Part shown: positions 35,537 to 37,575 of the stretch, piece after piece
Position numbering within the stretch: the stretch's first letter is position 1
Layout of the letters: every line of letters begins with the position of its first letter
NCBI GenBank assembly: GCA_012295275.1
Contig: CM022672.1
Coordinates: forward strand, 18,786,001-18,850,000
Length of the DNA stretch: 64,000 nt
Reading direction: 5' to 3'
Source of the DNA: Chrysomallon squamiferum
Lineage: Eukaryota > Animalia > Mollusca
Made by a program: the position numbers and the translations under genes
Notes under the pieces: model-generated
The model's input: the letters and a program-made list of their open reading frames with translations, nothing else
Told to the model about the DNA's origin: nothing
Database searches by the model: none

Positions 35537-36526
35537 TTACAGGTCAATTAAAGATGGAGCAGTAGCCTTTGCAAAAGGCTGATATTCGTCAGACTGTGGC
35601 AAAGTAAATTCGGGTTTCATGGAAACTCCGTTAGCCTTCTTACCGTTGTCAGACGCTGCCATCAGTTTTATTGCTGTGTCTATGTTCTTCTTGTACTGTT
35701 CTGAATAGGTTTTTGTAGACATGAGACTCGGTGTCAGTGACGTGAATCCAGTATAAAATGGAAGAAAGAAAAGCGTCATTAACATGAACAGTATCAAAAG
35801 TCCATCTGGTGTAAGAATTACCACGAAAACAGTACAGACAATAGAGAACACAGAGTAACCCCACAGATGTTTGAAACTGGACACAAAAGGATTCGATATT
35901 TTAAATTCTTCTTCCACTGCCCGTTGAGGAATCCATTTCGCACTGGGGGATATATTTGCTTGGAAAGCACGCACAATACGCACACAACCCACAATAGCTT
36001 CTGGTGTGAACTGAAGAATTGATGCCAGTGTTTCTAGTGCTACGTATTTATAGTTCTTTCTGGTGCACGTAGCAAATTTAGGAAATACCAGTATAAGAAA
36101 CATGATGATTATAACTGTTGCATATTTGTATTTCAAGTGAGTCTTGTATTTAATAATAATGTACGCTAGCAGTGTAGGTTTCATAAACATTTGTCTCAAA
36201 GCTGAGTGAGCTATGTAAGAAGATACAAAGTCTAATTTTGATTCTGTTCTCAGTTTTGTGGCATTAAATTTGTCTCCTTGCACCATTCTCTGCAACCATC
36301 TCATTGGTTTACCAAAAACGTTTTTCCAAAAGTACATGGACAAGAGAACTTCTCCTCTGTTCCATCTTCTTTCTCGAATATTCCACGACACATAGTTGTA
36401 AGGTGGAGCTTCTAAAAGACGGACAGAAGCTACATAAAGAGGTTGCAAAAGTGCAGCTTCAAATGTATCATGACTTAGAACATCGATAGGGACACATTCC
36501 TTTACATTGTCTCTTGTCCCGATCAC
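35537..36526 (-). CDS. opgH: C-terminal ORF (329 aa) of the OpgH-like glucosyltransferase: SHD and RxxRW motifs plus membrane domain
   Basis: ORF track; SHD at 36467-36475, RERRW at 36362-36376, WIPQR at 35921-35935. The frame is open upstream to 36559 (KNTIYIEKVIG), so the GTG is probably not a real start. Confidence 0.88.
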   Translation of the reverse strand: MIGTRDNVKECVPIDVLSHDTFEAALLQPLYVASVRLLEAPPYNYVSWNIRERRWNRGEVLLSMYFWKNVFGKPMRWLQRMVQGDKFNATKLRTESKLDFVSSYIAHSALRQMFMKPTLLAYIIIKYKTHLKYKYATVIIIMFLILVFPKFATCTRKNYKYVALETLASILQFTPEAIVGCVRIVRAFQANISPSAKWIPQRAVEEEFKISNPFVSSFKHLWGYSVFSIVCTVFVVILTPDGLLILFMLMTLFFLPFYTGFTSLTPSLMSTKTYSEQYKKNIDTAIKLMAASDNGKKANGVSMKPEFTLPQSDEYQPFAKATAPSLIDL

Positions 36527-37575
36527 TTTTTCAATATAAATAGTGTTTTTATCATTGCCTTACCGAAATACGACGACTGACCAAGAAACGACATGATGGC
36601 GTTTGTCATGGGTTCATAAATGGCCTGGCGCATTTTCTCGAGATGCATGAACATGGAGTCATCAGAGGCAGCAGTCAGCTCGATCGACGGCTGGATTATT
36701 CCACGATCCGGATGTGCTGCCGCGATGTCCAGCAAAACAAACACTGAACCTTCTGGAACTCCGGTGTCACCGTCCAGAACTAAAGTGTAGTCAAACTTGC
36801 GACCAAAAATGTTTTCTACGTCTTCAGAGTCGTAGAACAAAGGCTGGCCGTACGGTCTGGCGAGTTTTCCGTAATACTCAGGATCTGTGTAAGTGTAGGC
36901 GTCGTCATCACCTTCTGACAACAGCATCAGATCTTGGTACTGTCCACACTTACGTAACACTCTCGAAACTCGGTGAATCACCATGAATTCTCTAGCAATT
37001 TTCTTGCAGATTTTCTTCAAGTATCGTCCAAGAAAGACTGATCTGTCCATTTTGCGAAAATAGGACCAAAGGTATTTTACGTGTACTGGATCAACGGGCG
37101 CACCAAAAGCAAAATTTAATCCTTCTCGAAAAAGGTCGTCGTAAATGAGAGCACGATAATTGTCTCTCACCTCCAGTTCGTACTTTTTAAGCTCGTCAGA
37201 GTTCGTGGCACTCACAAGAACTGCAGAAATCTTCAGCGACAGGTTTCCCATGTAGGCTTTATACATCGTTTGTAAACATTCGTCAATGTCGTCTTTTGTT
37301 ATTGCTAGTAAATTGTAATTTAGCACCAGAGTCAAATTGTCGTCATTGGTTTTGTCAATGTGGCGTTTTTCTCCCCCGACTACCAACGTCACAATCGTCT
37401 GCACCGGAAATTCCATGACCGAGCCTTGAAGTACTCCAAGAATAAAAACGAGAGCAATTCCCTGAACTACGTGAGTGCGAGACCAGTCTATGTTTAAAAT
37501 GTTCAGAACTGTGAATATTACAGCAAGTGATATCCAGAAGCTGAAGTATATAAATACTCGATTCGTTCTTTTCAT
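35537..37575 (-). CDS. opgH: OpgH/MdoH-like glucan synthase (GT2, membrane-integrated), intronless, one frameshift at 36546-36550; 679 aa if repaired
   Basis: Collinear motifs versus E. coli OpgH (reference motifs recalled, not aligned by tool): HRVSRVLRKCGQYQDL ~ RRRRRVKRKSGNIDDF; YTLVLDGDT ~ YMVVLDADS; AHPDRGIIQ ~ ANPNAGIIQ; SYFGKAMIK ~ YWGHNAIIR; VLSHDTFEAALL ~ ILSHDFVEAALM; EAPP...RERRWNRGE ~ EELPP...RDRRWCHGN; LVFPKF ~ LFLPKL; LETLASIL ~ LEVLFSVL; WIPQR ~ WNSPQR. Two N-terminal and several C-terminal hydrophobic segments. In-frame stop upstream of the ATG at 37575. Confidence 0.9.
36523..37575 (-). CDS. opgH: N-terminal ORF (350 aa) of the OpgH-like glucosyltransferase: TM helices plus GT-A domain up to FGKAMIK
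   Basis: ORF track; RKCGQ at 36940-36954, DGD (DxD) at 36766-36774, GIIQP; start context gtaccATGa. The last 7 residues (TLFILKK) are out of frame relative to homologues. Confidence 0.88.
   Translation of the reverse strand: MKRTNRVFIYFSFWISLAVIFTVLNILNIDWSRTHVVQGIALVFILGVLQGSVMEFPVQTIVTLVVGGEKRHIDKTNDDNLTLVLNYNLLAITKDDIDECLQTMYKAYMGNLSLKISAVLVSATNSDELKKYELEVRDNYRALIYDDLFREGLNFAFGAPVDPVHVKYLWSYFRKMDRSVFLGRYLKKICKKIAREFMVIHRVSRVLRKCGQYQDLMLLSEGDDDAYTYTDPEYYGKLARPYGQPLFYDSEDVENIFGRKFDYTLVLDGDTGVPEGSVFVLLDIAAAHPDRGIIQPSIELTAASDDSMFMHLEKMRQAIYEPMTNAIMSFLGQSSYFGKAMIKTLFILKK

Follow-up and report, generated by a model that had tools for sequence, protein, structure and literature searches.

Results

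The locus and its coding evidence

The window, that is, the whole stretch of 64,000 nucleotides analysed here from Chrysomallon squamiferum, carries on its minus strand, at 37575-35537, a coding region that translates in two frames of 350 and 340 aa. When the frame break is bridged with an X, a frame of 679 codons results. The alignments with homologues contain no gap of intron size, which indicates a single exon, in agreement with the intronless coding region of about 2 kb described in the first-pass annotation. The gene and the repeats around it are arranged as follows.

36547..37575, minus strand: 5' part of the coding sequence, residues 1-343, comprising two membrane helices and the greater part of the GT-A domain; 80% identity to residues 1-343 of homologue P0002
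within 36547..37575, minus strand: start codon, in an ACCATG context
35537..36550, minus strand: remaining 3' coding part, for residues 344-679, which includes the catalytic SHD, the RERRW motif, the interface helices, the membrane helices of the C terminus and a low-confidence tail; 71% identity to P0002 residues 343-677
36545..36550, no strand: loss of one base in a T-run of the assembly, causing the frameshift; the extra base is present in contigs of runs X1-X7
37645..37720, no strand: (ATT)n microsatellite, upstream of the gene and 70 bases from its start codon; X4 and X5 have contigs that extend from the gene into it
34141..34244, no strand: (CT)n microsatellite, downstream
39145..39322, no strand: interspersed repeat, with copies at 50072 and 42445 in the window

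The frame break is probably an assembly error, because contigs of all seven conspecific runs (three studies) carry one extra base at this position. Record 21 of X5 (36389-36998, with two other differing letters and one gap) bridges the break fully, and the gene has no further lesion. The coding sequence has a GC content of 41%, the window as a whole one of 31%. Among the listed sites, 18 of 26 altered codons have silent changes, where 22% would be expected (p 4e-7); the variants cover at least 29 coding sites, in which alleles and paralogues are mixed. The pN/pS among conspecific variants was 0.13. Paralogues are visible as conspecific contigs that are about 87-89% alike and as elevated depth over the centre of the gene, copy number and synteny being judged from run contigs.

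Run contigs also join the gene to its surroundings: those of X1, X3 and X6 connect the 3' end with non-coding flank, and those of X4 and X5 connect the 5' end with (ATT)n. The first-pass annotation had placed host-type repeats directly on both sides. Of the three repeats, (ATT)n does adjoin the gene, but (CT)n and the interspersed repeat lie 1.3 and 1.6 kb off. The latter had been called a SINE at 39152; it is an interspersed repeat with two other copies, but neither ARAGORN nor Rfam gave a hit for it, leaving the SINE identity unsupported. A run from a second organism (X10) had a match of only 50 bases, at the gene start, no phage match was found, and 18 other frames of the window gave no opgG-type Pfam hit. 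The window gene is a genuine gene of the host animal.

Distribution of the family

Full-length relatives with 52-72% identity were found in 19 mollusc genera (snails, clams and one argonaut), and also in hemichordates (acorn worms) and one nemertean, the homologue of Haliotis being 72% identical to the window protein. Species names are attached to 38 of the 119 hits, namely 35 molluscan, 2 hemichordate and 1 nemertean, and among these named hits there was none from vertebrates, arthropods or nematodes. The homologues sit on chromosome-scale animal contigs of up to 140 Mb, and the family has been duplicated repeatedly in gastropods, bivalves and a cephalopod. More distant relatives occur in protists, in giant viruses (31-33% identity) and in a few uncultured bacteria (25-27%); a scan of prokaryote genomes with two motif patterns yielded four loci among 51 pattern matches. 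The gene is accordingly not peculiar to this animal.

ABC-transporter domains, with ABCC as the nearest type, are present in 23 of 28 long relatives, and the protist members are found in one to three copies inside an ABCC-like exporter. One family member is fused to an MFS transporter. The neighbours of the bacterial and viral relatives (39 proteins scanned) gave no hint of a nucleotide-sugar pathway. A GH128-like domain on Batillaria P0079 is a probable gene-model fusion, as it was seen in one of 46 scanned records and is absent from Batillaria P0006 and from the window. Our literature search, in which some queries were loose, found no paper on the family and no functional study, as the first-pass annotation had expected; the main text of the hemichordate genome paper does not mention glucan, glucosyltransferase, MdoH or OpgH.

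Relation to OpgH, Cgs and other synthases

The gene had been identified as a bacterial-type OpgH/MdoH, an identification that we do not retain. Each half of the window protein alone gave no hits in Pfam and in single-sequence PDB searches. Against the MdoH models, which were the best family models, the halves scored 24.3 and 13.4 bits. The full-length homologues P0002 and P0004 reached 48.8 and 48.6 bits, whereas the MdoH cut-offs are 328-1131 and the E. coli control scored 1662. On the one hand, the NCBIfam hits of the family were exclusively MdoH models; on the other hand, the PDB hits of the family profile at E < 0.001 were exclusively Cgs. Profile-profile probabilities were 98.6 for OpgH and 98.1 for Cgs, so the family is about equidistant from the two, with an identity of about 24-30% over 160-250 residues. 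Because this identity is so low, the donor and the linkage cannot be fixed from kinship.

The trees gave a similar picture. By FastTree, six OpgH rows formed their own clade (support 100) apart from the 85 family rows (99), and in a quick IQ-TREE run with three OpgH rows, OpgH again stood apart; the OpgH rows used were few and plasmid-derived, and fungal OpgH sequences were left out. The 96-row tree was made without P0162, P0191, P0192 and P0226, which were removed by a coverage filter. In these trees the family is a third long branch beside OpgH and Cgs. The proposed protein search and tree thus confirmed a relationship to beta-1,2-glucan synthases, but outside the OpgH clade. The family is best read as an ancient clade of putative membrane synthases that is distant from OpgH and Cgs and belongs to neither.

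With OpgH/MdoH (NCBIfam PRK05454 models), the family has in common a membrane GT2 architecture with N- and C-terminal helices, a stand-alone size of 600-850 aa, and the RKxG, LDxD, SHDxxEAAL, RxRRW, PK and W motifs. It differs in its identity of at most 30% over about 170 aa, in its separate long-branch clade, in having GK instead of GHN and in lacking both the first Asp and Pro-x-x-Asn-Glu; moreover, OpgH glucans are periplasmic, whereas a eukaryotic host has no periplasm. With Cgs/NdvB (GT84), it has in common the fold, the equivalents of D624, D739 and R773, the GK and QP motifs and a predicted six-helix membrane part. Cgs, however, is a chain of about 2800 aa with N-terminal, cyclisation and phosphorylase domains, which the 679-aa window protein does not have, and the P0002 model accounts for residues 1-640. 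In addition, the D527 equivalent is replaced and the Tyr694 primer loop is not conserved in the family.

Processive GT2 synthases known from animals make chitin or hyaluronan, and tunicates also have one for cellulose. These enzymes resemble the family in their membrane-embedded GT-A domain and D,D,D,QxxRW-type layout, but they gave weaker fold matches than Cgs, and the window halves have no Pfam family hit. Chitin synthase carries GEDR and QRRRW, in contrast to the SHD and RERRW of the mollusc family. The family belongs to none of these three kinds of synthase.

A eukaryotic parallel is found in fungi. The OpgH-like glucosyltransferase of Verticillium, Fusarium oxysporum and Metarhizium is likewise a eukaryotic and probably horizontally acquired protein that is related to beta-1,2-glucan synthases from bacteria and has an uncharacterised product. 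PMC3145793 places the fungal genes beside OpgH of Rhizobiales, whereas the mollusc family lies outside OpgH.

Motifs of the active site

In the window protein the motifs follow one another as RKCG (208), VLDGD (266), GIIQ (292), LSHD (367), EAAL (373), RERRW (401), PK (499) and WIPQR (near 548). The positions that bear on catalysis are listed here.

37312..37317, minus strand: Tyr87-Asn88, family-specific, with Tyr in 82 of 85 rows; the counterpart in OpgH and Cgs is x-Pro
37207..37209, minus strand: Ala123, where GT2 enzymes have their first conserved Asp (by spacing, the position of Cgs D527); Ala in 68 and Val in 14 of 85 rows
36928..36954, minus strand: RKCGQYQDL, residues 208-216; Lys and Gly common with OpgH and Cgs, QYQD a family signature
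36766..36774, minus strand: DxD, Asp268 and Asp270 (85/85 and 81/85 rows); aligns to Cgs D624
36467..36475, minus strand: SHD with the predicted catalytic base Asp370 (84/85 rows); aligns to Cgs D739
36362..36376, minus strand: RERRW, residues 401-405; aligns to Cgs R773-W774

All the motifs cited earlier for OpgH are therefore present and in order, but they are not specific to it: RKxG, LDxD, SHD and RxxRW occur equally in 5/5 Cgs rows, and the catalytic motifs RKxG, LDxD, SHDxxE and RxRRW are found in the family as in both OpgH and Cgs. In its GK and QP motifs the family resembles Cgs and not OpgH, and the WGHN motif, the PxxNE motif and the first Asp (LSD) of OpgH are missing. This first GT2 Asp occurs in at most one of 85 family rows vs 6/6 OpgH and 5/5 Cgs rows. 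Of the D,D,D,QxxRW layout, DxD, the catalytic Asp and RW are thus present and the first Asp is absent. Across the animal, protist, viral and bacterial members, 81-85 of 85 rows retain DxD, the catalytic Asp and RxxRW, and on the acceptor side SHD, E373, E389, RxxRW, G408 and W548 are common to the family, OpgH and Cgs. The Tyr694 primer position of Cgs is Tyr in 5/5 Cgs rows but not family-wide, part of the family having a nearby Tyr; where Cgs has this primer loop, the P0002 model has a helix (308-331).

Membrane topology and predicted fold

The hydrophobic helices at both ends of the protein, as first described, were recovered.

37414..37551, minus strand: predicted membrane helices 1 and 2, residues 9-27 and 36-54 (hydropathy scan and homologue model)
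35741..36205, minus strand: C-terminal membrane region, residues ~458-612, with four predicted membrane helices and interface helices (homologue model)

In the C-terminal region, the hydropathy scan alone gave two helices in the window protein and four in P0048 and P0087. The fold was compared through the predicted model of homologue P0002, which is 75% identical (pLDDT 90.5) and has a GT-A fold beneath a membrane domain, as in the membrane-embedded GT2 superfamily. Its best match was Cgs (Z 24.0, rmsd 3.3 A over 502 residues, TM 0.54-0.59), spanning model residues 1-617 and Cgs 402-982 with a structural identity of 14-15%. Lower values were obtained with cellulose synthases (Z up to 17.8, TM up to 0.44), the non-processive PcManGT (Z 16.8, 331 residues), hyaluronan synthase (Z up to 15.4) and chitin synthases (TM about 0.25). 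This ranking upholds the earlier view that the protein is of the glucan-synthase rather than the chitin-synthase kind. The preference for the Cgs fold is partly a library effect, since no OpgH structure was among the PDB hits. The fold predicted by the model is thus similar to that of Cgs, with two N-terminal and four C-terminal membrane helices.

Discussion

We consider that the window holds an old, conserved single-exon animal gene, and we give about even chances to the reading that its product is a membrane synthase which uses a nucleotide sugar on the cytosolic side of the membrane to build a beta-1,2-linked glucan that is exported separately. In this reaction, Asp268 and Asp270 would hold the donor diphosphate together with a metal, Asp370 would act as the base on the acceptor hydroxyl, RERRW would bind donor and acceptor, and the transfer would be inverting. 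The remodelled pocket of Tyr87-Asn88, Ala123 and QYQD may bind the nucleobase. Considering that the first UDP-binding Asp is lost, UDP-glucose is less certain as the donor. Cgs has six membrane helices and no export channel and relies on a separate ABC exporter (PMC10901819, PMC11842490), and the compact membrane part of the family would likewise form no channel; in this case, a short product may remain intracellular or be carried by a distinct transporter protein.

The family may instead be an active glycosyltransferase of the same clade with other chemistry, using a different nucleotide donor or sugar (for example, for beta-1,2-mannan) or adding one or two sugars non-processively to an exported lipid or small molecule. 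We regard this as the main alternative, possible though less probable than the glucan reading. The product specificity of GT2 enzymes shifts readily, and the family-wide loss of the first Asp, the new Tyr-Asn pair at the nucleobase pocket, the unconserved priming Tyr and the predicted compactness of the membrane part all suit such a change, as do the insertion into ABCC-like transporters and the MFS fusion. Typical cargo of ABCC transporters is conjugates and lipids, so a small glycoconjugate product also fits. However, the acceptor-side residues are kept, PcManGT fits worse, and the characterised OpgH and Cgs sister clades both make beta-1,2-glucan from UDP-glucose (PMC10901819, PMC11842490). 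A catalytically reduced protein that senses or binds nucleotide sugars and makes no polymer is improbable: the lost Asp would agree with it, and OpgH of E. coli doubles as a regulator (PMC11389396), but DxD, the catalytic Asp and RxxRW persist in nearly every row.

Two further readings concern the gene copy itself. That the assembly copy is a true pseudogene or null allele beside functional paralogues would explain the broken frame and is compatible with the divergent contigs and raised depth; we hold it to be quite improbable, as the extra base is found in 7/7 runs, near-identical contigs included (reads of the assembled individual are not among these), no other lesion is present and the variation is silent-biased. 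That this one animal recently acquired a genuine bacterial opgH, or that the sequence is bacterial contamination, might be suspected from the intronless frame, the GC above the window mean and the MdoH models as best family models. This reading is already contradicted and carries very little probability, since the protein is 72% identical to that of Haliotis vs at most 30% to OpgH, scores far below the MdoH cut-offs, falls outside the OpgH clade and is joined to host repeats in independent runs.

The proposal of horizontal acquisition from bacteria therefore survives in altered form: no recent bacterial transfer is indicated, but a bacterium-to-animal transfer in deep time is plausible. In the careful 27-row tree, built without OpgH, Cgs and the shorter virus-like P0162, P0191, P0192 and P0226, protist members group with molluscs at 97/99. 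Animal monophyly was not rejected (p-AU 0.235), and a nesting of protists inside animals is not established. The origin would ultimately be bacterial, with entry into animals before the mollusc classes split, possibly via protists or giant viruses.

In summary, it is possible, at somewhat less than even probability, that molluscs, acorn worms and ribbon worms have a fourth class of animal polysaccharide synthase, which would form a third lineage of beta-1,2-glucan synthases, distinguished by a remodelled nucleotide pocket, and would have moved among bacteria, protists, giant viruses and animals, and that molluscs make their own beta-1,2-glucan. In bacteria, beta-1,2-glucan is a host-interaction and osmotic factor; if the proposal is true, this polymer would add a new type to the polysaccharides of animals. 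Because the family lacks the first Asp, it can serve to test what determines donor choice in GT2 enzymes, and the giant-virus members and those inside protist ABC transporters offer a path along which the gene could have travelled and a hint about how the product is exported. With a single-exon enzyme of 680 residues, a predicted catalytic Asp and known diagnostic glucanases, the proposal is readily testable. That molluscs have retained and duplicated a relative of beta-1,2-glucan synthases suggests that a major phylum, to which farmed oysters, scallops and abalone belong, has a carbohydrate product that has so far gone unrecognised.

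The gene and its flanks

A frame scan located the gene as follows:

35537-37575, minus strand: two open frames that overlap, 350 and 340 residues long

Joined with X at the junction, the frames give 679 residues, and in this read-through all motifs named in the first-pass annotation were present in the same order. The coding region also proved intronless, as had been claimed: six homologues span both frames over their full length, and no gap in the alignments has the size of an intron. Coding GC was 41% versus 31% for the window, the start codon context was ACCATG, and no second copy was found within the 64-kb window. 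The (ATT)n and (CT)n arrays on its flanks were confirmed. At the position of the proposed SINE (39145-39322) lies an interspersed repeat that occurs twice more in the window; ARAGORN and Rfam gave no matches in the window, leaving the SINE label unproven. Other features of the window were:

7084-7223: exact 70-base tandem duplication
10357-11576: degenerate tandem array
11727-11996, minus strand: weak saposin-like match (PF05184, 21.4 bits; cut-off 25.2, not reached), which may be part of a host gene as an exon
26477-27476: pair of direct and inverted repeats of 190-200 bases

Nine public runs from three studies, none recorded as RNA, cover the stretch, and seven runs of organism A (a conspecific, X1-X7) and one of organism B (X10) were compared with the window. 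In X1, X3 and X6, contigs run from the 3' end of the gene into non-coding flank, and in X4 and X5 from its 5' end into the (ATT)n array. Among the records listed, contigs of all seven organism A runs carried one extra base at 36545-36547; a 611-base contig with two other differences (X5, record 21) fully bridges the break site. A real null allele is an unlikely cause of the frame break. In the organism A runs, contigs about 87-89% alike and the raised depth over the gene centre indicate that at least one paralogue exists. Contigs of six of these seven runs skip 110 bases at 36998-37109 and have unknown letters at the joint; a segment of a divergent paralogue is the probable cause. Purifying selection acts on the gene: from at least 29 coding variants, in a set that mixes alleles and paralogues, 18 of 26 changed codons were silent versus 22% expected (p 4e-7), and pN/pS was 0.13, not near 1.

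Distribution of the family

The closest sequence to the window protein was P0002 (75% identity). The N-terminal half as query retrieved 119 longer proteins, 38 with species names (35 molluscan rows, two hemichordate and one nemertean), and both searches together named 19 mollusc genera, which we take to be 7 gastropod, 11 bivalve and 1 cephalopod, plus Saccoglossus, Glandiceps, Ptychodera and Tubulanus. Identity to the window protein was 52-72% in molluscs (highest in Haliotis rufescens), 50-54% in hemichordates and 38% in Tubulanus. Near-consecutive locus tags suggest tandem arrays in Sinanodonta, Dreissena and Glandiceps. By these relationships the host would most probably be a mollusc, closest to the gastropods. 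The top Atlas match was a 63-member cluster, 90% eukaryotic with Mollusca commonest, in which no common Pfam family was found. The automatic name 'glucans biosynthesis glucosyltransferase H-like' is attached to two records. Fusion partners of the transferase seen once each were an MFS transporter (P0090), a formin FH2 domain (P0112) and a PF11790 glycoside hydrolase domain (P0079); these fusions may be artefacts of assembly or gene modelling.

Among the 122 representatives from an exhaustive search were proteins of Chromosphaera perkinsii and of Abedinium folium, and a cluster with Noctiluca scintillans. Giant-virus contigs carry full-length relatives (31-33% identity); the members at L001:10001-11803, L002:7661-9508, L005:2800-4749 and L046:7890-9815 are compact (600-650 aa) with intact catalytic motifs. 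L002 has an NCLDV major capsid gene, and topoisomerase II directly precedes the family gene in L002 and L046. Yasminevirus A0A5K0U8N8, a GT2-like protein and the best viral fold match in BFVD (TM 0.55, 12% identity), may be another distant member of the group. A two-motif scan of genomes of 185,579 prokaryote species gave 51 pattern matches, of which four were family loci (Elusimicrobia, Omnitrophota and two Gammaproteobacteria MAGs; 25-27% identity). Bacterial members lie inside giant proteins of 1800-3300 aa (L008:3790-9264, L011:2-7447, P0198, P0210), and a second, ordinary GT2 domain precedes the unit in L009, L010, P0180, P0198 and P0210. Metagenome open frames L031:72-8978 and L032:198-11159 (2969 and 3654 codons) have family-like units and weak GT2 matches. 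Annotated OpgH and Cgs-type proteins showed only 24-30% identity over 160-250 residues.

ABC-transporter domains occurred in 23 of 28 long relatives, seven of the 23 from EukProt or MMETSP. In protist-type proteins of about 2000-3340 aa (P0120-P0122, P0124, P0126, P0128, P0299-P0313), one to three whole transferase units lie mid-way in an ABCC-like transporter, some extra units lacking catalytic motifs; the transporter portion of P0124 most resembles ABCC2 and ABCC4. The unit follows the first Walker A motif, and P0309 and P0124 show a signature-like motif after it; from sequence it thus appears to be inserted within the first nucleotide-binding domain.

Phylogeny and predicted structure

For the trees, an identity filter reduced 223 domain units to 96 rows. 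FastTree gave three long-branch groups: 6 OpgH rows, 5 Cgs rows and 85 family rows, the last with support 99. The same picture came from a quick mixture-model run of IQ-TREE on 51 rows. Because OpgH, Cgs and the family form separate groups in both, the family lies outside OpgH and the window protein is not an OpgH, as it had been called. The family splits into one side with Chromosphaera, Noctiluca, Abedinium and bacterial MAG proteins, and another with Tubulanus, giant viruses, hemichordates, molluscs, rows without species name and a second set with EukProt and MMETSP protist transcripts among its rows. The careful 27-row tree joins this second set to the molluscs, apart from hemichordates (97/99); molluscs and hemichordates as one clade were acceptable in the AU test (p 0.235). 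Chromosphaera is a relative of animals and falls on the opposite side, and therefore simple vertical descent is not favoured. The trees are compatible with more than one donor and direction of transfer.

The P0002 model (pLDDT 90.5, pTM 0.88) had three Cgs entries as best structural matches (TM 0.54-0.59), in match lists that contain no OpgH structure. VIA gave Z 24.0 against Cgs (rmsd 3.3 A, 502 residues); cellulose synthase reached 17.8 and hyaluronan synthase 15.4. Profile-profile comparison hardly separated OpgH (98.6 over 321 columns) from Cgs (98.1 over 457 columns). PMC10901819 describes D527 and D624 of Cgs as UDP ligands, D739 as base and R773 of the RW motif, with a six-helix membrane part, no export channel and a Tyr694-linked primer. 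Like Cgs, the family keeps the equivalents of D624, D739 and R773; among 85 rows, Asp268 was kept in 85, Asp270 in 81, Asp370 in 84, Arg404 in 84 and Trp405 in 82. Lys339 is common to the family (84/85) and Cgs, whereas OpgH has Asn. The first Asp, matched to D527 by spacing (213 versus 212 residues ahead of the catalytic Asp), has been replaced by Ala in 68 and by Val in 14 of the 85 rows, yet all 11 rows of OpgH and Cgs have it. The x-Pro motif of OpgH/Cgs is replaced by Tyr87-Asn88, and the Cgs primer Tyr has no family-wide conservation.

Discussion

We consider that there is about an even chance that the protein is an inverting transferase on the cytosolic membrane face, which would extend a glucose chain by beta-1,2 linkage and would have no channel of its own. 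The main rival is less probable: an enzyme that uses another donor, transfers another sugar or has a lipid as acceptor. The replaced first Asp speaks for it, and the acceptor-side residues shared with OpgH and Cgs speak against it. The ABC fusions suggest a product needing a transporter and leave unspecified which product. Bacteria export cyclic beta-1,2-glucan through an ABC transporter, according to work cited in PMC11842490. There is also a report of cyclic beta-1,2-glucan in Chlorella.

A non-catalytic sensor is improbable; the replaced first Asp would fit it, but the catalytic residues are kept in nearly all family rows. About as improbable is a pseudogene copy, for which the broken frame speaks, and against it the extra base in the run contigs and the selection on the gene. 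Recent OpgH transfer or contamination is very improbable, given the tree position, the low identity to OpgH and the contigs that join the gene to host flank. PMC3145793 places the OpgH-like genes of wilt fungi, which are eukaryotic, beside Rhizobiales OpgH, and PMC11389396 deals with the substrate of OpgH and with a mutant that is catalytically dead.

In the literature searched, which was largely open-access, no work on the mollusc family was found; the family is auto-annotated and apparently unstudied. A role in mucus, shell or egg capsule, as listed in the first-pass annotation, is conjecture. In summary, this is a real, old, selected gene, and its family forms a third lineage, not yet described, within the OpgH/Cgs group.
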